IMG/VR virus record: IMGVR_UViG_2526164661_000012
Reading direction: 5' to 3' (one strand)
Length of the DNA: 40,486 bases
Origin: a virus
Lineage: Duplodnaviria > Heunggongvirae > Uroviricota > Caudoviricetes
The translations under genes were made by a program, and so were the position numbers. Positions 1 to 27,818 of the stretch are shown piece after piece (position 1 is the stretch's first letter; every line of letters starts with the position of its first letter). Under the pieces are notes generated by a model. It ran no database searches and was not told the DNA's origin. It was given only the letters and a program-made list of their open reading frames with translations.

Positions 1-1053
1 TTACGGGGTAATGCCAACCGCTGCCGCCACTTTGTCGCCACTTGGCAGCGTTGCCAGAGGATTGAAACGGAGCGCCGTTTCCAGATGATCCGGTGCCAGA
101 TGTGCGTAACGCATCGTCATTTTTATATCGTGATGTCCGAGAATTTTTTGTAAGGCCAGGATGTTTCCACCCGACATCATGAAGTGCGCCGCAAACGTAT
201 GGCGCAGAACGTGTGTGAGTTGACCGCGAGGGAGCACGATAGACGTTTTTTCCATCACGGATAAAAATTGAAAATAGCAGTCTGTGAAGAAATTGAACCC
301 ATCAAGCGCCATGATCTCTTCGTAAAGCTCTTTACTGATAGGGATGCTTCTGTTTTTCTTCCCCTTCGTTCTTACAAATGTAATTCGGTATTTGGTCACC
401 TGTGAACGAGTAAGATTTACGGCTTCTCGCCAGCGTGCGCCTGTGCTTAAGCATATCTTAACTACCAGTGCCAGAATTGGGTCCTGACGTTTGCAATCAG
501 CCAGTAATTCAACAATCTGCTCATGGGTAAGCCATGCCATCTCTTTTTCAGCGATGGTGAATTTTCGCATGTTCTCCAGTGGGTTCGGATACGACCATTC
601 GCCCAGGCGGGATAGTTCGCTAAAAACACTACTAAGATAGCTTTGCTCCAGGTTAATGGTGACCGGGCTTGCTCCTTTCTTCCATTTTTCGCTGAAGTAG
701 ATCTCTCCTGTCAGGCGTTTATCTCGATAGTGGGCAAACATTTTAGAGGTGAGATCGGTTGCAAGGGGATTGCCCAGAGCGTCAACTATCAACAGCAATT
801 TGTCATAGACATGCTGCCCAGCTGTCAGAGATTTACCATGTAGTTTGAACCATAGCTCAACCACGTCTTTCAGTGTTCGACGATCCACTGATTCACCCAG
901 CCAGGGCTTTGCTTCGGTTTCTTCCATCGTGTGACGCTCAAAAGCCAGAGCTTCACCTTTGGTGGCGAATTGTTTACGCACACGACGTCCACTACGTCCC
1001 GCGGGGTAACATTCGCATAGCCATTTTCCTGTGGTGAATTTTCGTACTGCCAT
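1..1053 (-). CDS. int: Tyrosine integrase, P2/186 family
   Basis: ORF track 1..1131 minus; likely start Met at 1053 (MAVRKFTTGKW...); C-terminal catalytic region (LRHTFAAHFMMSGG...KMTMRYAHL) typical of tyrosine recombinases; stop codon at 1..3; sits at prophage edge as in P2/186. Confidence 0.9.
   Translation of the reverse strand: MAVRKFTTGKWLCECYPAGRSGRRVRKQFATKGEALAFERHTMEETEAKPWLGESVDRRTLKDVVELWFKLHGKSLTAGQHVYDKLLLIVDALGNPLATDLTSKMFAHYRDKRLTGEIYFSEKWKKGASPVTINLEQSYLSSVFSELSRLGEWSYPNPLENMRKFTIAEKEMAWLTHEQIVELLADCKRQDPILALVVKICLSTGARWREAVNLTRSQVTKYRITFVRTKGKKNRSIPISKELYEEIMALDGFNFFTDCYFQFLSVMEKTSIVLPRGQLTHVLRHTFAAHFMMSGGNILALQKILGHHDIKMTMRYAHLAPDHLETALRFNPLATLPSGDKVAAAVGITP
19..40. repeat. 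Putative attL core (cgctgccgccactttgtcgcca), 21/22 identical to 37633..37654
   Basis: Direct repeat found by eye at both prophage ends; overlaps 3' end of int, as in P2-like phages; flanks on either side do not match. Confidence 0.55.
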
Positions 1054-1142
1054 AAAAAATGCCCTCCAGTGGAGAGCATTTTTACTGTATGTATAACCAG
1101 TGTCAATGTATATGAATTGAGATTCATACATTGAGGTTAATT

Positions 1143-1631
1143 TTATCTTTCTACTTCCCAGCGTAGAGATTGCATTAACATAGCATAAATATTGAACAGG
1201 AAAGTTTTTAAAGTTAATACAAGGAACACTGCACTGCTTCCTACGAGTATATATAGTATTTGAACTCCAACAACTTTAGTGCAATGAGAAAACATTAAGG
1301 CTCTGAGTAATTTTGTAGCCAATCCATTTTCTTGCCCGAAAAGAAGGACTAAAAGATAGATAACAGACCAAAATATGAAATATATAAATACTCTCATAAA
1401 TACGCCATAAACATATTTTAAGTAACTTATCCCGTATAATGGATGCTTATACTCCATTAATGAAAGGAAAAGTTCAGGTTTATTTATGGTTGCAAATATT
1501 GTAAATCCAGTAATTAAAAAACCTAATGTTGTTGTAGTGAATCCGAATACTAAAGGTGTCCATTGTCTAATAGATGAAATTAACTCTGGTGATGAAGATA
1601 GACAAAAAGCATTAATAGATAATAATATCAC
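1143..1631 (-). CDS. Hypothetical multi-pass membrane protein (lysogeny-operon cargo)
   Basis: 162-aa ORF in AT-rich DNA; several hydrophobic segments (LVFGFTTTTLGFLITGFTIFATI, IYFIFWSVIYLLVLLF, ILYILVGSSAVFLVLTL); same strand as cI and int. Confidence 0.55.
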   Translation of the reverse strand: MILLSINAFCLSSSPELISSIRQWTPLVFGFTTTTLGFLITGFTIFATINKPELFLSLMEYKHPLYGISYLKYVYGVFMRVFIYFIFWSVIYLLVLLFGQENGLATKLLRALMFSHCTKVVGVQILYILVGSSAVFLVLTLKTFLFNIYAMLMQSLRWEVER

Positions 1632-1748
1632 TAATAATAATGTGAAATAAAAGTCAAATGAATTGACCTTTATTTTTTAGTTAATTTGTAAACATCATGC
1701 AAAGATCGCTCTTTGGTCAGATCTTCTGGGTTGAATGTATATTTCATA

Positions 1749-2213
1749 CTATAGCCACCTAGAAATTATTGATGTTAACTTGGAAAAAATTTTAGTATAA
1801 TCTTCACGTTCTGGAATAATAATATTTCCTGCATCCTTTAATTCTGTGAATGCAGAATACGCCTCTTGAGCAGCTCTTTCCAAATCAGAACTAAGTTGTG
1901 GCCTTGATGCTTTTAGAGTAAAACTATCATTATTCCCTGATAGCCTTGCTCCGTGTTCATCTTTACCACTTATAATTACTTTAGAGTTGGCCATTCGGGT
2001 TGCACTTGTTGTTTTTTGAATGACGGCCTCAGAATTTAAACCATCTTCATTTTTATTTGTGTATACTAATTGAGCTTTACTACTATTAAGTTCTTCTTTT
2101 TCTTGTTCAATTTTCCTCCAGAAGCCATCAAGAGATATATTTTCACTATTTGTTGGCAATAACTCAATTGATAATCTATTAACAACAGAAAAGAGTTCAA
2201 CAAAATTGCTCAA
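1749..2213 (-). CDS. Hypothetical protein (lysogeny-operon cargo)
   Basis: 154-aa ORF in AT-rich DNA, co-oriented with cI/int; no recognisable motif. Confidence 0.5.
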   Translation of the reverse strand: MSNFVELFSVVNRLSIELLPTNSENISLDGFWRKIEQEKEELNSSKAQLVYTNKNEDGLNSEAVIQKTTSATRMANSKVIISGKDEHGARLSGNNDSFTLKASRPQLSSDLERAAQEAYSAFTELKDAGNIIIPEREDYTKIFSKLTSIISRWL

Positions 2214-2257
2214 TGATCTTGGGTCTGTTAAGGGGGTAACCCGTAATTTGGGGGCTC

Positions 2258-2797
2258 CTAGTTTACGATAAATATCTTTTTTATACAGTCGATCAATGTA
2301 TGATTTTTTCTTTCTAATTCTTTTATTTTTTTTACTTCGTAATCCACAAAAGAATTATATCGCTGTGCAAGGCAATACTTGCTAGTATTTTCAAATTCTT
2401 CTAGGGTAGGGGCTCCAGAAACCTCTTTGCAAAGCATTAATCTGTGCTCATTAAGCATAAGAATAAAAATAGAGCTGGGGTGACTTTCTAGCGTCCTGTG
2501 ATCTCGAATTAATTGACCATCTTGAAATATTTGATCTCGTTTAAATATGGTCTTTTTTATAATGCGGCCACACAATGCAATTGTTGGAACTATAGGACCA
2601 ATAAAATCTGAATCTGTAGTATCTAACGTAATAATTTTTGTGTCAGTAAAGAAATATTCTGTATCTTTAAATTTTCTAACGTATTTTTGTGCGAAAAATG
2701 AAGGAAAAACAATGCAATCAAAAGCATCTAAGAGAACTTTGTCCTCTCCAAAATTTAAGGTATAGTTTGCAAATTCAATAGTTTTCGTAAAGCTCAT
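2258..2797 (-). CDS. Hypothetical protein (lysogeny-operon cargo)
   Basis: 179-aa ORF starting 2 nt after the stop of the repressor gene (2800), implying co-transcription; AT-rich; no recognisable motif. Confidence 0.55.
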   Translation of the reverse strand: MSFTKTIEFANYTLNFGEDKVLLDAFDCIVFPSFFAQKYVRKFKDTEYFFTDTKIITLDTTDSDFIGPIVPTIALCGRIIKKTIFKRDQIFQDGQLIRDHRTLESHPSSIFILMLNEHRLMLCKEVSGAPTLEEFENTSKYCLAQRYNSFVDYEVKKIKELERKNHTLIDCIKKIFIVN

Positions 2798-2799
2798 TG

Positions 2800-3741
2800 T
2801 TAAACCCTTTTTCTAATTATTCCTTTAACTTTATTATTAAATTCCAAATCTTCTTTATCGCATTCAAAGCTATATTTTGTGTTTTCAACGCGGATGCGAT
2901 TGTTTGGAAGTTTAAATATGTCTCTAAAAGTAAATTCTCCGTTAATAGATACTAACCATAGACCATCGCTAAGATACTCCTCTTTGCTAATGATATATGA
3001 ATCATTTGCGGAATTAACTATATAGGGATGTTTTAAATTTTGAGGTAAAATTTCGCTCGAAACGATTAATTCTCTTTGATCAGTAAGTTTGCCGTCACGT
3101 AGATCATAGCAGTCTAATGTAAGCAACCCACTTAGCTTTGTTTGATTGGAATGCCCCTTACCAAAAGATAACCACTCGAGAGACACTCCTGTTTCTAAAC
3201 AGCATTGGATGATCCAGTCTGCCGGAAAAATGTCTCGCATGTATCGTGTAGCTAATGTGCTTTTTGAGATACCAAGGTGATCGGCTAAGGCTTGGCGCGT
3301 TTTGTAACCGTAAGCCTTAACAATTCGCTCTATTGCTGCTTTACCCCCTCGAGTGAAATCCATGTGGTTTTCATTATCGAACTTTATCGTGGGGGTGTGA
3401 ACTTCATTGCAAAATTCATCTGCAGACTGTTTTTCAGCATGCCGTTCTGGCGAAGGAGCTGGCACTCCTTCTTCAGCATCTAAACCAAATGCTAACCATT
3501 CGATTGATGCGCCAGTTTCCATTGAACATATAACAACCCAATCAGCAGGGAAGGTATCGCGTGCATATCTGTTAGCCATTGTACTTTGTGAAATACCAAG
3601 GTGGTTACAGAATGCTTGGCGTGATTTGAAACCATAGGCCATGAGTATTCTCTCAATGACTTTTTGCCCTCCTCGATTCTGCATGACCATGGCTTTCAGA
3701 TGATCTTCAATATGGCGAAATGTGATTTTATTAGTTGACAT
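2800..3741 (-). CDS. cI: CI-type immunity repressor with tandemly duplicated HTH domain and S24/LexA-like C-terminal domain
   Basis: 313 aa; two homologous HTH repeats (GGQKVIERILMAYGFKSRQAFCNHLGISQSTMANRYARDTFPADWVVICSMETGASIEWLAFG vs GGKAAIERIVKAYGYKTRQALADHLGISKSTLATRYMRDIFPADWIIQCCLETGVSLEWLSFG); C-terminus aligns by eye to the LexA S24 domain (SINGEFTFRDIFKLPNNRIRVEN vs ARIDDEVTVKRLKKQGNKVELLPEN); divergent from apl/cII and co-oriented with int. Confidence 0.7.
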   Translation of the reverse strand: MSTNKITFRHIEDHLKAMVMQNRGGQKVIERILMAYGFKSRQAFCNHLGISQSTMANRYARDTFPADWVVICSMETGASIEWLAFGLDAEEGVPAPSPERHAEKQSADEFCNEVHTPTIKFDNENHMDFTRGGKAAIERIVKAYGYKTRQALADHLGISKSTLATRYMRDIFPADWIIQCCLETGVSLEWLSFGKGHSNQTKLSGLLTLDCYDLRDGKLTDQRELIVSSEILPQNLKHPYIVNSANDSYIISKEEYLSDGLWLVSINGEFTFRDIFKLPNNRIRVENTKYSFECDKEDLEFNNKVKGIIRKRV

Positions 3742-4600: not shown

Positions 4601-4774
4601 ATGCTTACTAAAGAACCATCATTTGCATCGCTGCTGGTAAAACAAAGTCCGGCAATGCACTACGGTCACGGCTGGATCATGGGGGAGGATGGTAAACGCT
4701 GGCATCCGTGCCGTTCACAAGATGAATTGCTGGCAGAACTATCTACGAAAAAAGGGGGAACAAATGGCTATTGA
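4601..4774 (+). CDS. Hypothetical small early protein
   Basis: 57-aa ORF (MLTKEPSFASLLVK...) with GAGGTG Shine-Dalgarno; overlaps next gene start; position corresponds to 186 fil/dhr region but no similarity established. Confidence 0.35.
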   Translation: MLTKEPSFASLLVKQSPAMHYGHGWIMGEDGKRWHPCRSQDELLAELSTKKGGTNGY

Positions 4775-5172: not shown

Positions 5173-5406
5173 ATGCGTAATATTGAAACCCTCACGACTA
5201 AAACCGGACCGGATGACGCAGGGCTTAATATTTTACTGACAGAGGCTCGTCTGGAAGAACGCCGGGCAAGGGCTGAAGCAATGGCAGCTCGCCTTGATCG
5301 CCTGGCGTGTCATATCACATCCCGCCAGTTAAACCACGTCGAAGCGGCAGAACTGCTGCGTGTGACTGCTGAAGCAATCCAGAACGAAGCGCAGGAGATC
5401 CACTGA
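5173..5406 (+). CDS. Hypothetical early protein
   Basis: 78 aa (MRNIETLTTK...), GGAGA ribosome-binding site; stop overlaps start of next gene. Confidence 0.5.
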   Translation: MRNIETLTTKTGPDDAGLNILLTEARLEERRARAEAMAARLDRLACHITSRQLNHVEAAELLRVTAEAIQNEAQEIH

Positions 5407-5633
5407 TGGCTGATGCAATGGATCTCGTACAGCAGCGCGTTGAAGAAGAACGCCAGCGTCATATCCGTGCTGCCCGTGCCAAAACGCCGGGAGTGTCCCG
5501 CGTGCTTTGCGTTGAGTGTGAAGCGCCAATTCCGCCAGCACGCCGCCGTGCCATTCCGGGTGTGCAACTTTGCATTACCTGTCAGGAAATCGCAGAGCTG
5601 AAAGGCAAACATTACAACGGAGGTGCTGTATGA
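5406..5633 (+). CDS. TraR/DksA-family C4 zinc-finger protein
   Basis: 75 aa with CxxC...CxxC (CVECEAPIPPARRRAIPGVQLCITC), typical of phage TraR-like proteins (P2 orf82-like). Confidence 0.7.
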   Translation: MADAMDLVQQRVEEERQRHIRAARAKTPGVSRVLCVECEAPIPPARRRAIPGVQLCITCQEIAELKGKHYNGGAV

Positions 5634-6483
5634 GCACCATCCTGAAATGGGCGGGAAATAAAACTGCCATAATGTCCGAACTGAAAAACATCTTCCTGCT
5701 GGCCCGCGACTGGTTGAACCTTTCGCGGGTTCCTGTGCTGTGATGATGGAGACGGATTATCCCAGCTATCTGGTTGCGGATATTAATCCTGATTTAATCA
5801 ACCTCTATAAAAAGGTTGCCGCTGATTGTGAATCGTTTATATCTCGCGCCAGAGTTTTATTTGAGATCGCAAACAGGGAGGTGGCTTATTACAACATAAG
5901 GCAGGAGTTTAATTACTCAACTGAAATTACTGATTTCATGAGAGCGGTATATTTCCTGTATCTCAATCGTCACGGTTACCGTGGTTTATGTCGCTATAAC
6001 AAGAGCGGGCATTTCAACATTCCCTACGGTAATTATAAAAATCCGTATTTCCCTGAAAAAGAAATTCGCGCATTTGCAGAAAAGGCCCAGCGAGCAACGT
6101 TTATCTGCGCCAGCTTTGATGAAACGCTGGCGATGTTGAAGGCGGGGGATGTGGTGTATTGCGATCCGCCGTATGACGGTACGTTTTCCGGCTATCACAC
6201 TGATGGTTTCACTGAAGATGACCAGTATCACCTGGCATCCGTTCTTGAACATCGAGCATCTGAAGGACATCCGGTCATTGTTTCTAACAGTGACACGTCT
6301 TTGACCCGGTCTCTTTATCGTAATTTCACTCACCACTACATCAGGGCGAAACGCAGCATCGGCGTTGCAGCGGGGGAGGGAAAATTTGCAACAGAGATGA
6401 TTGCCACTAAATCTGCTAATTGGTTTAGTGCCGATTTTAGTAGGGGACGTGACTCTACTGTTATTTTCGGGGTGCAAGTGTGA
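5630..6483 (+). pseudogene. dam: DNA adenine methyltransferase (Dam-like, DPPY motif), N-terminal ~19 codons out of frame
   Basis: ORF 5740..6483 carries the DPPY catalytic motif (VYCDPPYDG) but lacks the N-terminus; ATG at 5630 (ATGA overlap with upstream stop) encodes MSTILKWAGNK... and runs to a stop at 5741..5743; adding one A to the A5 run at 5684..5688 restores ...SELKKHLPAGPRLVEPFAGSCAV..., the AdoMet-binding motif. Confidence 0.75.
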
Positions 6484-7310
6484 AAGAAATGCACCACGGA
6501 ATTCATCATTTCCATGGGACGCCTGTCTGGGGAAGTGCTGGCGACGTTCATCGTATTGCGGTGAGCGGAGCTGGTGCTTTCGTCTCCTATGTACGACCAG
6601 ATCAGATTGCGGCGTCCATTCAGCACGCCCAGGTCGTTGGCATTGATAACGGCGCATTTTCTGCATGGGTGCGTGGGCTAAAAATTAACTGGAATGATTT
6701 TTATAAATGGCTCCTGAACTATTACCACCATCCTAAGGTCGCTTTTTTTGTCATTCCTGATGTTGTGGACGGAGGTGAACGTGACAATGATGCCCTGATA
6801 AACGAAGTTCCGAAAATGTTCTACGGGAAGGCAACTCCCGTCTGGCATCTGCACGAGTCAATCGATCGGCTTATCGAGCTATGTCGTGAATGGCCTCGTG
6901 TCTGCTTTGGATCGTCTGGTGAATATGCGGCTATTAGAACTGCGCACTGGCATCGTCGTATGCAGGACGCTTTTGAAGCAATTTATTGCCGACACAATTT
7001 CAAAACAGCTGTTCATGGTTTGCGCATGCTTGACGGTCGTGTGTTGGGAAATTACCCACTGGCGACTGCCGACAGTACAAATCTTGCCTGCAATGTCCCC
7101 AAATTTAATAGCAAATATCCTGAGCTTACGCGGGCTATTCAGGAGGCTGAGTATTCGCGCAATCTGACGGAAAAGGAGCTGAAAGCTGTCATTCTGAAAA
7201 ACCGTTGCGCAATTTTAAAAGGTGCAATTGAAGCTGTTCGCCCACCTTCAGTTTCTGACTGGCTGTCGAATGGTTTGCAGCCTTCACAGCTCGAACTGGA
7301 GATTGCGTAA
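6480..7310 (+). CDS. Hypothetical protein, translationally coupled between dam and A
   Basis: 276-aa ORF; start overlaps dam stop (GTGA) and stop overlaps A start (TAATG); no motif recognised. Confidence 0.6.
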
Positions 7311-9682
7311 TGAACTACAGCTATTCCTGGAATGCTGAGAAAAAAGCAATCAATCCTTACGTAGAGACAGAAGAGCAATCTTCAGTTTCTGCGCTTTCAA
7401 ACCTGATCGCTCTGTACGCTGCCGATAACGAGCAGGAACACCTGCGCCGCGAGGTACTGAGTGATCAGGTCTGGGAGCGTTATTTCTTTAATGAATCCCG
7501 TGATCCTGTCCAGCGCGAAATGGAGCAGGATAAGCTCATTAGTCGGGCAAAGCTGGCGCATGAGCAGCAGCGTTTTAATCCAGATATGGTCATTCTGGCG
7601 GACGTCAATGCCCAGCCTTCCCATATCAGCAAGCCGCTGATGCAACGTATTGAATACTTCAGCAGCCTTGGCAGGCCAAAGGCTTATTCCCGCTATTTGC
7701 GTGAGACGATTAAGCCATGTCTGGAACGGCTGGAGCATGTGCGCGACAGTCAGCTATCCACTTCTTTTCGCTTTATGGCAAGCCATGAAGGGCTGGACGG
7801 CCTGCTGATTCTGCCTGAAATGAGTCAGGATCAGGTGAAACGCCTGTCCACCCTTGTTGCTGCGCATATGAGCATGTGCCTTGATGCAGCTTGTGGCGAT
7901 TTGTATGCCACCGATGACGTTAAGCCAGAAGAAATCCGCAAGACATGGGAAAAGGTGGCAGCAGAAACCCTGCGACTGGATGTCATACCGCCTGCGTTTG
8001 AGCAACTCCGCCGGAAAAGAAACCGCCGTAAACCCGTGCCCTATGAACTCATTCCGGGTTCGCTGGCGCGTATGTTGTGCGCCGACTGGTGGTACCGGAA
8101 ATTATGGAAGATGCGTTGCGAATGGCGGGAAGAGCAGTTGCGTGCTGTTTGCCTGGTCAGCAAAAAAGCATCTCCCTATGTCAGCTATGAAGCCGTGATG
8201 CATAAACGTGAGCAGCGCCGTAAGTCGCTGGAGTTTTTCCGTTCTCATGAACTGGTGAACGAAGACGGCGACACGCTGGACATGGAGGATGTGGTAAACG
8301 CCAGCAGCAGCAACCCTGCGCATCGCCGCAATGAGATGATGGCCTGTGTTAAAGGTCTGGAGCTTATCGCGGAAATGCGCGGTGACTGCGCCGTTTTCTA
8401 CACCATCACCTGTCCGTCACGTTTCCATTCCACGCTAAATAACGGCAGGCCCAACCCAACCTGGACAAATGCGACGGTAAGACAAAGCAGTGATTATCTG
8501 GTCGGCATGTTTGCTGCATTTCGTAAGGCGATGCACAAAGCCGGATTGCGGTGGTATGGCGTGCGGGTGGCTGAGCCGCATCATGACGGTACAGTTCACT
8601 GGCACCTGTTGTGTTTTATGCGCAAAAAAGACCGCCGCACCATCACTGCATTACTGCGTAAGTTTGCCATCCGTGAAGACCGCGAGGAGCTGGGCAATAA
8701 CACTGGGCCGCGCTTTAAGTCTGAGTTGATTAACCCGCGCAAAGGTACGCCAACAAGCTACATCGCGAAATACATCAGTAAGAACATTGACGGGCGTGGT
8801 CTGGCTGGCGAGATCAGCAAGGAAACGGGGAAATCCCTGCGTGATAATGCTGAATACGTTAATGCCTGGGCGTCTCTGCATCGTGTTCAGCAATTCCGCT
8901 TCTTTGGCATTCCGGGGCGTCAGGCTTACCGTGAACTGCGATTGCTGGCTGGTCAGGCGGCAAGGCAACAGGGGGACAAAAAAGCAGGTGCGCCGGTACT
9001 GGATAACCCGCGCCTTGATGCCATTCTGGCTGCTGCTGATGCTGGTTGTTTTGCCACCTACATCATGAAGCAGGGTGGCGTACTGGTTCCCCGCAAATAT
9101 CACCTCATCAGAACTGCTTATGAAATCAACGAAGAGCCGACCGCCTATGGCGATCACGGCATTCGTATTTATGGCATCTGGTCACCTATTGCAGAGGGCA
9201 AGATCTGCACTCATGCCGTGAAGTGGAAAATGGTTCGTAAGGCCGTTGACGTTCAGGAGGCGGCAGCCGACCAGGGCGCTTGCGCCCCTTGGACTCGTGG
9301 CAATAACTGTCCCCTTGCTGAAAATTTGAACCAACAGGAGAAAGATAAATCAGCTGATGGGGGCACTAGAACGGACATTACCCGCATGGATGACAAGGAG
9401 TTGCACGATTACCTGCACAGTATGAGCAAAAAAGAGCGCTGGGAACTGGCAGCAAGGTTACGCCTGGTTAAACCGAAACGGCGTAAAGACTACAAACAGC
9501 GAATTACAGACCATCAGCGACTGCAGCTCGTCTATGAGCTGAAGTCCAGAGGATTTGATGGTAGCGAGAAAGAGGTCGATTTACTCCTTCGCGGCGGCAG
9601 TATTCCGTCAGGAGCAGGCCTGCGTATCTTCTATCGGAACCAGCGTTTGCGGGAAGATGATAAGTGGCGGAACCTGTATTAA
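7310..9682 (+). CDS. A: Replication initiation protein gpA (rolling-circle HUH endonuclease)
   Basis: 790 aa; HUH-like motif ([11 protein letters not shown]) and tyrosine-containing motif ([12 protein letters not shown]); size and position match P2/186 A. Confidence 0.9.
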
Positions 9683-21905: not shown

Positions 21906-22130
21906 TTAATGATATTCGTATAAGAAAAAATTTAATATAAACGCAGGTATTCCTGATTTTTTCAAAATTACATCATGAGATTTTCTATATTTGAATAGTG
22001 CTCTTATAACTATCGTCACCAAAGTTATAACAGCTCCAATAATGGAAATCCATGCGGCAAGTGCCGCTGCCGGGGTGTTTAAAAATTCAGCATTAAATAT
22101 ATTAGAACTTATTGGATTCATAACACTCAT
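21906..22130 (-). CDS. Hypothetical small membrane protein in AT-rich insert
   Basis: 74-aa ORF with one transmembrane helix (AAALAAWISIIGAVITLVTIVIRALF); same orientation as 21325..21843. Confidence 0.35.
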   Translation of the reverse strand: MSVMNPISSNIFNAEFLNTPAAALAAWISIIGAVITLVTIVIRALFKYRKSHDVILKKSGIPAFILNFFLYEYH

Positions 22131-24063: not shown

Positions 24064-24661
24064 TCTGCTGCCACCAGGTTCAACGCTACTGGAGCGCCGA
24101 CTGGCGCAGACCTGTAGCGGGATTTCTGATCTGCAGGTGCCGCTGCGTGACTTGTGGAATCCGGCAACCTGTCCGGTCAGTTTCCTGCCTTATCTCGCTT
24201 GGGCGTTCTCTGTGGATCGCTGGGACGAGGGCTGGACTGAAAGCGTCAAACGTCAGGTGGTGAAGGATGCTTTTTATATTCATCAGAATAAAGGAACCAC
24301 CAGTGCCGTGCGGCGGGTGGTGGAACCGTTCGGATTCCTGATCCGCATTATTGAGTGGTGGCAGACCGGCGAAACACCGGGCACGTTTCGCCTGGATATC
24401 GGCGTGCAGGATCAGGGCATCACTGAAGATACCTATCTGGAACTTGAGCGACTGATAAGCGATGCCAAACCATGTAGCCGTCACATGATCGGCATGTCCA
24501 TCAATCTGCAGACCAGCGGCCCGCATTGGGTGGGAGCCGCCAGCTATCTTGGCGAAGAAATCACGATCTATCCGTATATCAACGAAACAATTATTTCCGG
24601 CGGCACCGCGCATGAAGGCGGGGCGGTCCATGTTATTGACACAATGAGAGTGAATCCATGA
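24056..24661 (+). CDS. I: Baseplate protein gpI-like
   Basis: 201 aa following J. Confidence 0.85.
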   Translation: MNSLLPPGSTLLERRLAQTCSGISDLQVPLRDLWNPATCPVSFLPYLAWAFSVDRWDEGWTESVKRQVVKDAFYIHQNKGTTSAVRRVVEPFGFLIRIIEWWQTGETPGTFRLDIGVQDQGITEDTYLELERLISDAKPCSRHMIGMSINLQTSGPHWVGAASYLGEEITIYPYINETIISGGTAHEGGAVHVIDTMRVNP

Positions 24662-26049
24662 GCACAAAATTTTATACCCTGCTGACGGATATTGGCGCGG
24701 CGAAACTTGCCAGCGCCGCCGCGCTCGGTGTGCCTTTAAAAATTACCCATATGGCGGTCGGCGATGGCGGCGGAACATTACCAACGCCGGACGCAAAGCA
24801 GACAGCACTGGTAAATGAGAAACGCCGGGCTGCGCTGAATATGCTCTATATCGACCCGCAGAACAGCAGCCAGATTATTGCTGAACAGGTGATCCCTGAA
24901 AACGAGGGCGGTTGGTGGATACGTGAAGTGGGCTTGTTTGATGAGTCCGGGGCATTGATTGCCGTGGGTAACTGCCCGGAAAGCTATAAGCCGCAACTGG
25001 CTGAAGGCAGTGGGCGTACCCAGACCGTGCGCATGGTGCTGATTACCAGCAGTACGGGCAATATCATCCTGAAAATCGACCCTGCTGTAGTGCTGGCAAC
25101 CCGCAAGTATGTGGATGACAAGGCACTGGAGCTGAAGGTGTACGTGGATGACCTGATAGCAAAACATCTTGCCGCACTGGACCCGCATTCACAGTATGCA
25201 CCCAAAGAAAGTCCGACATTTACCGGAACCCCCAAAGCGCCAACGCCAGCGGCGGGGAATAATACCACTCAGCTTGCGACCACCGCATTTGTTCAGGCGG
25301 CACTGACGGCCCTGATTAATGGTGCGCCAGCCACGCTGGACACGCTGAAAGAAATAGCCGCAGCCATTAACAATGACCCGAAATTCAGTACCACCATTAA
25401 CAATGCGCTGGCACTGAAAGCGCCGCTGTCGAGTCCGGCACTCACCGGAACGCCAACAGCCCCCACGGCGGCGCAGTCGGTCAACAATACACAGATTGCC
25501 ACTACGGCTTTTGTGAAATCGGCGATTGCGGCAATGGTGGGTTCTGCACCTGCGGCACTGGATACACTGAACGAACTGGCGGCGGCACTGGGGAATGATC
25601 CGAACTTTGCCACGACAATGCTTAATGCGCTGGCAGGTAAACAACCGCTGGACAATACGCTGACTAATTTGAGTGGAAAGGATGTAGCTGGTCTTCTCAC
25701 ATACCTTGGTTTGGGAGAAGCCAGATATGTCATTCAGCGAGGAGCTAATGTCAATGGTGCATGGATACGCTGGTCAGATGGTGCAATAGAAGTATTTGGA
25801 ACTGGTGGTTCCAATGATAATGGGCTGGCTAAAGTCGTTTATCCAATTGCACTACCTAAGCTTTCACGTTTTATCAGCATAGCGGAAAGAATAAGAACAG
25901 ATTACGAGGCCACACCTAATAACGTTCACGTTTCAATGATCGTGGATGACCAGGTCAGTAATACAGGTTTTTATGTCCGCTGCCAGATGTACGACGGAAG
26001 ACCATCAACAAGTGCTTTTTCCTGGAGAGTTTATTGTGCGCCTGTTTAA
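24658..26049 (+). CDS. H: Tail fibre protein gpH-like; C-terminal ~110 codons lie inside the invertible segment
   Basis: 463 aa; N-terminus MSTKFYTLLTDIGAAKLA...; repeated ...NTQIATTAFV...LDTL.E.AAA..NDP.F.TT..NALA.K.PL blocks; crossover site within the gene at 25694..25719. Confidence 0.85.
   Translation: MSTKFYTLLTDIGAAKLASAAALGVPLKITHMAVGDGGGTLPTPDAKQTALVNEKRRAALNMLYIDPQNSSQIIAEQVIPENEGGWWIREVGLFDESGALIAVGNCPESYKPQLAEGSGRTQTVRMVLITSSTGNIILKIDPAVVLATRKYVDDKALELKVYVDDLIAKHLAALDPHSQYAPKESPTFTGTPKAPTPAAGNNTTQLATTAFVQAALTALINGAPATLDTLKEIAAAINNDPKFSTTINNALALKAPLSSPALTGTPTAPTAAQSVNNTQIATTAFVKSAIAAMVGSAPAALDTLNELAAALGNDPNFATTMLNALAGKQPLDNTLTNLSGKDVAGLLTYLGLGEARYVIQRGANVNGAWIRWSDGAIEVFGTGGSNDNGLAKVVYPIALPKLSRFISIAERIRTDYEATPNNVHVSMIVDDQVSNTGFYVRCQMYDGRPSTSAFSWRVYCAPV
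25694..25719. repeat. DNA-invertase crossover site (left), TTCTCACATACCTTGGTTTGGGAGAA
   Basis: 26-bp site resembling gix/hix/cix half-site consensus (TTnTCnnAAACC); inverted relative to site at 27148..27173; encodes GLGEA in both fibre frames. Confidence 0.55.
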
Positions 26050-26233
26050 TCCTGTTACTTTGACTGAAGTAATCCCCGGTCTTCATGACGTGACCGGGGC
26101 TGTGGAATTACCAGAAGATAACTGGTTTTTTACTGCATCTGAAATCCCTGAAGGAATGGAAATATCTGTTAACGAGAAGGGCGAACCCATTCTGATTGAG
26201 ATTAAACCATCTCAGGTGGAACTGGCCAGATAA
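26036..26233 (+). CDS. Putative short tail-fibre assembly/chaperone protein for the currently expressed fibre
   Basis: 65 aa from GTG overlapping the H stop; position equals P2 G / Mu U; no sequence similarity established. Confidence 0.4.
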   Translation: MRLFNPVTLTEVIPGLHDVTGAVELPEDNWFFTASEIPEGMEISVNEKGEPILIEIKPSQVELAR

Positions 26234-26468
26234 CCCCCGGCGCGGTGCTGGTATCTGCTTCCATCACCGCGTCGATATTACCAACATCATATTCAGTCAT
26301 TTCCGGTTCCGGTGGTGCTATAAACTCTCCGTCAGAATAGAACCAACCGACGCCTGCATCTATATGATCAACATTTATAATTTCGCAATTAGAGAATAAA
26401 TCACCCTCTCCATCCCAGATAATAATATTTTTCACCACGCCATGTTCAATCAGAGCAAAATTACTCAT
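26202..26468 (-). CDS. Tail-fibre assembly protein-like (alternative, inverted orientation)
   Basis: 88 aa ending ...EADTSTAPGVIWPVPPEMV, resembling the conserved Tfa C-terminus (DTSTAPDIEWP); 3' end overlaps the plus-strand tfa convergently. Confidence 0.5.
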   Translation of the reverse strand: MSNFALIEHGVVKNIIIWDGEGDLFSNCEIINVDHIDAGVGWFYSDGEFIAPPEPEMTEYDVGNIDAVMEADTSTAPGVIWPVPPEMV

Positions 26469-27147
26469 CAGGCATACTCCTCAACAATAACTATTCCCGG
26501 GGCACCGTCACCTCCCGATTGAGCCTCACTTCCAGCAGGTGCGCAGGCTCCGCCTCCGCCAGCACCAAAGCCCTCAGCTTTACCACCACCACGTCCTCTG
26601 AATGATGAAGAACTTGCACCACCTATACCGCCTGAACCTAATGGTGTATCCCCCCCGGTACCACCTGCTACAGCTTTAACAGAGATAACCATTGCTCCTG
26701 GTGTTTTTGCACTACAGCGAAATGCTCTTAGTACAGTGCCGGACGATGTCGGACTGGCACCCCATGAAATACCCTGAATATATGATGTGTTTGCAGATGC
26801 TCCCCCCGCGCCACCGCCTGTACCACCAGGTGCAGTTATCATGGAACCGAAATAAGTTGTGCCACCTTCACTACCTGAATTTCTTCCGGCTCCCCCCCTT
26901 TACCTGCAGCACCGATAATAACGTTGACTTCGAAATCATTATCAACCTCGAAAAATGCTTCAATAAATGCGCCGCTCAATCCAGCTCCGGCTGTTGCCTG
27001 CTGATTTTCTGTTGTTTCAGGAACCCCACCGCCGCCGCCGCCACCACCAGAGGCAATGACCCTTATCTTTTTTGTCCCTGGTGTTGGGATATATTTTCCA
27101 GAACTTTTAAAAATATTCGTGTTTAACAAACGACCAGAGAATCTGGC
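26468..27147 (-). pseudogene. Alternative tail-fibre C-terminal cassette (Gly-rich), split by a frameshift in a G7 run
   Basis: Track ORFs 26839..27201 and 26468..26842 are consecutive in different frames; frame at crossover site encodes GLGEA as in H; one extra G in the run (plus-strand C7 at 26892..26898) joins them. Confidence 0.5.
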
Positions 27148-27173
27148 TTCTCCCAAACCAACGTTTATGAAAA
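27148..27173. repeat. DNA-invertase crossover site (right), TTCTCCCAAACCAACGTTTATGAAAA
   Basis: Near-perfect inverted copy of the 25694..25719 site, about 55 bp upstream of the invertase start. Confidence 0.55.
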
Positions 27174-27228
27174 TGCAGAGATAACGGCTAACTGGCATCA
27201 TCCCCGGTTTTTATTCAGGGGATTGATC

Positions 27229-27792
27229 ATGCTTATTGGCTATGTACGCGTGTCAACAAATGACCAGAACACTGATTTGCAACGTAATGCACTGAACTGC
27301 GCGGGATGTGAGCGGATTTTTGAGGACAAAATCAGTGGCACTAAGTCCAACAGACCGGGGCTGAAAAAACTGCTCAGGACACTATCGGCAGGAGACACGC
27401 TGGTTGTCTGGAAGCTGGACAGGTTGGGGCGCAGTATGCGGCATCTTGTTACGTTGATAGAAGAGTTGCGCCAGCGAGGTGTGAATTTCCGAAGCCTGAC
27501 TGACAGTATTGATACCAGTACCCCAATGGGCCGTTTCTTTTTTCATGTCATGGGTGCCCTGGCTGAAATGGAACGCGAACTGATAGTTGAACGTACCAGG
27601 GCGGGGCTTGCTGCAGCTCGCGCCAAAGGCAGAGTAGGTGGACGCCGTCCTAAGTTGACTACCGAACAGTGGGCACAGATTGGACGCTTACTCGAGGCCG
27701 GAGAATCAAGACAGCGTATTGCACTGATTTTTGATGTGGGTGTTTCCACAATTTATAGAAAATTTCCGGCAAATAAGAGTAATGAATCGTAA
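27229..27792 (+). CDS. Serine DNA invertase, Hin/Gin/Pin/Cin family
   Basis: MLIGYVRVSTNDQNTDLQRN...VVWKLDRLGRSMRHL...FFHVMGALAEMERELI..., very close to recalled e14 Pin; track ORF starts at TTG 27223, ATG at 27229 preferred. Confidence 0.9.
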   Translation: MLIGYVRVSTNDQNTDLQRNALNCAGCERIFEDKISGTKSNRPGLKKLLRTLSAGDTLVVWKLDRLGRSMRHLVTLIEELRQRGVNFRSLTDSIDTSTPMGRFFFHVMGALAEMERELIVERTRAGLAAARAKGRVGGRRPKLTTEQWAQIGRLLEAGESRQRIALIFDVGVSTIYRKFPANKSNES

Positions 27793-27818
27793 GCGTCAAC
27801 GGAGCACCGTATTGACGC

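Follow-up and report, generated by a model that had tools for sequence, protein, structure and literature searches.

The dam genes carried by Felsduovirus and other P2/186-like phages belong to a gene family that is already well known. Described members, which include RE-2010 gp10, Klebsiella phage KP12_335 and E. coli WP_085381329, follow genes for DUF2732 and TraR/DksA proteins and precede gene A, are tied to their neighbours by overlapping stop and start codons, and are all intact, with either A6 or AAAAAG at a site near the 5′ end. Two further systems offer points of comparison for a methyltransferase gene in which a run has changed length. In phasevarions, mod genes carry simple-sequence repeats, and a change in the length of a run near the 5′ end of the methyltransferase gene shifts the reading frame; the tracts concerned are long and conserved as repeats, and ON and OFF states are both found in populations. 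Under-calling of homopolymers in flow-based or long-read draft assemblies also shortens runs, always by one base, only within runs and at a rate that rises with run length; it differs among sibling assemblies of identical DNA and breaks conserved host genes. Here we analyse a phage dam gene of the first kind, recorded one base short, and argue that the missing base is very probably a homopolymer under-call in a draft assembly and that, in the strain itself, the run is most likely A6 and the gene intact.

The window, the whole 40,486-nucleotide stretch of DNA that was analysed (IMG/VR record IMGVR_UViG_2526164661_000012), is 100% identical to contig AIGT01000013.1 of the E. coli DEC10E draft (GCA_000250075.2), which is probably a product of 454 sequencing. 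It contains a P2/186-like prophage (Peduoviridae, Felsduovirus-like) integrated between rcdA and ybjL. From the left, the gene order is integrase, two cargo genes, CI, cII, fil, DUF5347, DUF2732, TraR-like, dam, an ORF of 273 or 276 amino acids (aa), gpA, cargo genes and late genes, ending at ogr, which adjoins the host genes ybjL, ybjM and grxA. No finished genome in the collection carries the exact DEC10E prophage, the best match being 98.5% over dam and 99.8% over 1..2800; the Felsduovirus-type dam genes named above share 94–98.5% DNA identity with the copy described here. The features around dam are as follows.

5406..5633, plus strand: ORF for a TraR/DksA-type zinc-finger protein (Pfam PF01258; PHROG 54), with an ATGA overlap with dam.
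5630..5743, plus strand: 37-aa stub ORF, comprising 19 true Dam N-terminal residues (ILKWAGNK, motif X region), then 18 out-of-frame residues and TGA.
5684..5688, plus strand: A5 run, which is A6 or AAAAAG (Lys-Lys) in relatives.
5689..5739, plus strand: codes for HLPAGPRLVEPFAGSCA (motif I, FxGxG) when read in the frame of the Dam body; translated correctly by neither ORF.
5743..6483, plus strand: downstream ORF of 246 aa, or 247 aa if GTG 5740 is the start; it supplies motif II and the Dam body beyond, with DPPY at 6163..6174.
6480..7310, plus strand: 276-aa ORF (273 aa from ATG 6489), DpdA/TGT-like (PHROG 887, E = 6.5e-96).
7310..9682, plus strand: P2 gpA-type replication endonuclease (Pfam PF05840, E = 9e-128), the last gene of the coupled chain.

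An earlier reading made from the sequence alone (the sequence-only reading) had placed dam in a translationally coupled chain running from the TraR-like gene through dam and the 276-aa ORF to A, and all four stop/start overlaps are indeed present (TGATG 5404..5408, ATGA 5630..5633, GTGA 6480..6483 and TAATG 7308..7312). The break that it had described near the 5′ end of a Dam-type gene is likewise there. The dam start codon, ATG 5630, overlaps the TGA of the TraR/DksA-like ORF; its frame reads MSTILKWAGNKTAIMSELK, reaches the A5 run and continues out of frame to TGA 5741..5743, and this stop overlaps the downstream ATG within dam (TGATG). The frame of the Dam body is open from 5659 to TGA 6481..6483, with GTG 5740 and ATG 5743 as its earliest starts. 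One base inserted anywhere in 5659..5742 clears all stops from dam, and adding an A to the A5 run, the repair that had been proposed, yields a 284-aa Dam that matches Pfam PF02086 from end to end (profile 1–253 of 253; 256 bits against a cut-off of 22; E = 4e-76) and TIGR00571 dam at 317.5 bits (cut-off 114.85). As recorded, the Dam-family profile match is divided between two frames, and GenBank holds two entries, EHW93594.1 for the 37-aa stub and EHW93595.1 for the 246-aa ORF, the latter present on one contig only. Relatives carry one more base at precisely this position, which makes the frameshift a genuine property of the sequence record.

The division between the two frames differs in one respect from that first proposed, in which an AdoMet-binding N terminus and the DPPY catalytic body lay in separate frames. 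Only the N-terminal KWAGNK motif is in the upstream frame; motif I (LVEPFAGS, FxGxG) lies within 5689..5739, downstream of the run and in the same frame as DPPY (motif IV), yet upstream of any start codon in that frame. The FAGS-coding stretch thus precedes the start of the 246-aa ORF and is not in the frame of the stub, and DPPY and FxGxG come together in one polypeptide only after one A is added. Since neither dam ORF translates motif I, the A5 allele, if real, would leave a dead enzyme. We also considered the suggestion that an active enzyme might arise from the downstream GTG or ATG start; this is contradicted by the 246-aa ORF itself, which begins at position 41 of the 267 positions of the Dam profile and lacks motifs X and I.

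The repaired protein would be an orphan N6-adenine DNA methyltransferase of the Dam family (D12 class, GATC-type), an ordinary member encoded in the early lytic operon. It aligns with E. coli Dam (PDB 2G1P, 4GOL) over residues 4–260 (E = 9e-74, with 2G1P as the alignment partner), and the KWAG(G/N)K, EPFxGxG, ADIN and DPPY motifs occur in the same order in both. The residues K9, Y119, L122, R124, P134 and Y138, which we take to be the GATC contacts of 2G1P, are conserved in the alignment. The phage protein differs from the host enzyme in being phage-borne and orphan, in the replacement of N120 and R137 and, as recorded, in its frameshift. Its score against the host Dam equivalog NF008152 (289.6 bits) falls below the cut-off of 441, so that by profile it is a paralogue carried by phage, distinct from the host Dam. 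Judging from homology and gene order, translational coupling on the early lytic transcript would yield the intact Dam, which, by its likeness to E. coli Dam, would presumably methylate GATC on phage DNA.

The position immediately downstream of dam is occupied here by the 276-aa ORF, whose PHROG 887 match is named ‘queuine tRNA-ribosyltransferase’; the ORF (6480..7310) has no Pfam, NCBIfam or PDB sequence match, and no preQ0 synthesis genes were seen near it. In many Felsduovirus-type loci, by contrast, the DpdA-like gene is missing from this position, or its place is taken by a PAPS-reductase-family gene: the slot is empty in RE-2010 and KP12 and holds a PAPS-reductase-family gene in two of the relatives compared (L005 and L006). 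Given the PHROG 887 match and this variation among relatives, the slot beside dam may be a variable DNA-modification position.

One comparison for the A5 run comes from other drafts of the same prophage. In the sibling draft L018 (AIHN01000039.1) the run is A6 and the 284-aa dam is unbroken; a third copy of the prophage (L019) also has A6. Over 12.2 kb, 5 substitutions separate L018 from the window, along with five run indels of one base in both directions; over the 1,078 nucleotides (nt) of the TraR-like gene and dam (5406..6483) there are 0 substitutions. A5 is therefore private to the DEC10E draft and missing from a sibling that is otherwise identical across these two genes. The host flanks were tried as a clean control that might have favoured prophage-specific decay, but they failed in this role, as the flanks of both DEC10E and another sibling draft, L031, carry private run contractions. 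The left flank of DEC10E matches L018 over 4,372 nt save for a private A7>A6 in DEC10E, and 4,025 nt of host flank match L031 save for one run, contracted from A8 to A7 in L031, where ybjL, a conserved host gene, is split as a result. Run contractions split or truncate ybjL and ybjM in L031 (AIHL01000041.1, 9619..11303) and in L025 (AFDV01000032.1, 19082..19378), both of which are otherwise identical or nearly so to DEC10E; genes that look like pseudogenes in these sibling drafts therefore call for caution.

Besides dam, eight more runs in the window are contracted by one base; with another just beyond its edge, the total is ten in 46 kb of contig. The eight are listed here without strand.

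1673..1678: T6 (T7 in L018 and L005), truncating a 201-aa cargo gene.
2326..2333: T8 (T9 in L005), splitting a 349-aa cargo gene into 179 and 154 aa; common to L018 and L019.
4748..4753: A6G5 (A7G5 or A6CG5 in relatives), truncating fil; common to L018 and L019.
11122..11127: T6 (T7 in L018 and L006), intergenic; private to DEC10E.
21925..21930: A6 (A7 in L006, L020 and L022), breaking a minus-strand DUF6216 gene.
26892..26898: C7 (C8 in L007), splitting an alternative tail-fibre segment into 124 and 120 aa.
28346..28349: T4 (T5 in a finished-genome copy of ISEc47 and in the sibling L031), splitting the IS66-family transposase.
30810..30815: A6 (A7 in intact relatives), splitting the tail sheath gene into 112 and 278 aa.

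No run in the window is longer than in every relative compared. Measured against L005, the rate of contraction rises with run length, from 0/80 for runs of 5 through 1/30 for runs of 6 to 3/8 for runs of 7 and 1/1 for the run of 9; the A6 length that dam has in relatives belongs to the shortest class affected, a point against an artefact there. Compared with L018 and L031 together, DEC10E shows 15 one-base-pair indels and 7 substitutions in 30 kb, whereas the roughly 94 kb compared in six clean assembly pairs contain 32 substitutions and no indels (Fisher p = 2e-8). Set within this excess of one-base run indels in the draft batch, the frameshift in dam, private to one draft and absent from an identical sibling, is itself probably one more such error: a consensus in which, on this account, a homopolymer would have been called one base short, as at nine other places in the contig. 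We favour this explanation because A5 is private to a draft whose homopolymers are demonstrably under-called at other places too, among them host DNA and the copy of the insertion sequence. In addition, dam has no other sign of decay, because a protein identical to the repaired one is present on 62 public contigs.

Some of the other contractions may nevertheless be real. Those at 2326, 4748 and 30810 may be real alleles because they are common to other assemblies, and the number of proven artefacts would then be lower. Compared with every other prophage, the fil state, A6G5, lacks one base, but it is also found in L018 and L019 and may be a lineage allele rather than an error. The two minus-strand cargo genes between integrase and CI (1143..2797) are intact in E. 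coli 98193 (201 and 349 aa); the 349-aa gene is named DUF4747 in some records, and its T8 at 2326 is common to three assemblies of the prophage. The tail sheath is recorded as two ORFs (30486..30824 and 30821..31657), and with A6 the stop of the N-terminal fragment overlaps the ATG of the C-terminal fragment (ATGA). The sheath tract is also A6 in L026, L028 and L033, three clean assemblies with no indels among them, and two clean metagenome contigs (L030 and L032) have A8; A6 on this background was found in 0 of 971 complete-genome records. The sheath tract thus varies in both directions in good data, whereas the dam tract does not.

An ISEc47 (IS66-family) element occupies about 27800..30300, with the tail-fibre invertase gene (27229..27792) on one side and the sheath gene on the other; it is found at the same place in L031, and the two copies differ by 7 one-base indels and 2 substitutions. 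The invertible tail-fibre region spans 24658..27792, with the resolvase-family recombinase at 27229..27792; its minus strand carries alternative segments for the fibre C terminus and chaperone (26468..27201), and the alternative segment is split by the C8>C7 change at 26892. A cargo hotspot between dinI and the portal gene (10535..12865) contains a 176-aa ORF on the minus strand and a 360-aa ORF (11783..12865), the latter with only a faint Peptidase_M48 match and no PHROG. The same 360-aa gene stands beside GAPS4 defence genes (PDDEXK_GAPS4 and GAPS4b_N) in L020–L022 and L024, and other relatives carry retron St85, AIPR or SIR2 genes at P2 cargo hotspots.

Among annotated relatives, including Salmonella phage RE-2010, Klebsiella phages and many E. 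coli prophages, dam is intact, one base longer at the site in every case and 284–285 aa in length. A5 was found in 0 of 1,237 matching records from 5,426 complete E. coli genomes, of which 127 are identical to the 116 nt examined in the window save for the extra A, and in 0 of 119 IMG/VR viral contigs (A6 in 78, AAAAAG in 41). Metagenome contigs gave 2 of 39 with A5 (A6 in 20, AAAAAG in 17), so that the combined metagenome and viral set (n = 158) comprises 98 AAAAAA, 58 AAAAAG (about 37%) and 2 A5 alleles. The 37-aa stub is also present on about 24 other contigs. Most of its carriers are shattered assemblies, in which even ilvD and ilvG are broken (L008–L010 and L013), or gap-rich ones (L015, L017 and L043). 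Four others (L011, L014, L016 and L074) form one clean lineage, with 0–13 substitutions and 0 indels among its members. This lineage is a P2-like prophage at the same rcdA/ybjL site, with dam at L011:10001..10857; it was found in an isolate run and several gut metagenomes, at least 11 samples in all, and no finished E. coli genome is closer to it than 97.6%. Because its assemblies are clean and dam alone is split, a genuine A5 allele exists in nature in this unrelated lineage, to which A5 among clean assemblies is confined.

This lineage bears on the alternative that slippage removed one A from A6 in DEC10E itself, leaving an inactive pseudogene (the 37-aa stub and the 246-aa fragment) that is tolerated since the host has its own Dam. 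We consider such a null mutation unlikely, though it deserves more weight than the other alternatives that we examined. A heritable A5 in a lineage whose other genes are intact indicates that the site can mutate in nature; the DEC10E prophage looks degenerate, with its ISEc47 insertion and a sheath frameshift shared with clean assemblies (L026, L028 and L033); and the TGATG overlap of the stub stop with an in-frame ATG means that downstream coupling could survive. Losing the phage enzyme would also cost little, because E. coli has a Dam of its own. These points are outweighed by the confinement of A5 to one draft among siblings whose technical run indels occur at about twice the rate of substitutions, by the absence of any substitution in dam relative to the A6 sibling, and by the restriction of real A5 in clean data to a single lineage. 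We also considered recombination as a source of the allele and rejected it: across the TraR-like gene and dam, DEC10E differs from the real-A5 lineage at 42 sites and from its A6 sibling at 0. It is more doubtful still, and in our estimate improbable, that −1 changes recur naturally at the Lys-Lys A6 tract near the 5′ end of dam in P2-like prophages, a hotspot at which the A5 of DEC10E, like that of the clean L011 lineage, would be a genuine OFF allele.

The least credible possibility, which we hold to be extremely improbable, is that the run is a slippery site, either a phase-variable ON/OFF tract or the site of a programmed −1 ribosomal or transcriptional slip that restores full-length Dam. 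The tract does lie early in the dam gene, A5 occurs on several backgrounds, and a stable hairpin (5702..5730; z = −3.4, computed for a folded segment of 102 nt) begins 13 nt 3′ of the run. As in phasevarions, the run sits early in a methyltransferase gene, whose frame shifts when the run changes length; unlike phasevarion tracts, it is merely 5–6 nt long, often interrupted and essentially always ON. The frequency of AAAAAG among relatives (58 of the 158 metagenome and viral alleles) indicates that the homopolymer is not maintained by selection, and the tract is not conserved as a repeat. Nor are ON and OFF lengths both common in high-quality genomes: OFF alleles are absent from the complete-genome and IMG/VR records, most other A5 carriers are shattered assemblies, and a single OFF lineage is found among clean ones. 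A programmed frameshift was rejected after a check of the heptamer, RNA folding, comparison of the hairpin across relatives and an Rfam scan, which found no element at the site. The zero-frame codons are CUG AAA AAC and the heptamer is G AAA AAC, not an in-phase X XXY YYZ; no relative requires recoding, all close relatives being in frame; and the structure is not specific to the shifted allele. The hairpin, perfect and GC-rich (GCCCGCGA...TCGCGGGT), lies inside the motif-I coding region of dam, is invariant in all the in-frame relatives examined and simply encodes motif I. The sequence-only reading had offered an inactive pseudogene, a sequencing error and a slippage-prone contingency site side by side; the evidence favours the error, leaves the pseudogene as a minor possibility and does not support contingency.

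For the biology of these prophages, a real A5 in DEC10E would mean merely that a redundant prophage Dam had been inactivated in one strain, a minor finding. Should the tract instead prove to be a natural hotspot, prophage Dam would be repeatedly switched off in nature, perhaps because selection in Dam-positive hosts acts against GATC methylation that is redundant or over-expressed. On the reading that we prefer, an assembly error at the A5 run, the apparent pseudogenes in the DEC10E draft (dam, fil, tail sheath, IS transposase and cargo genes) call for read-level support, and broken genes in this contig should be taken as prophage decay, phase variation or recoding only when the reads bear them out.
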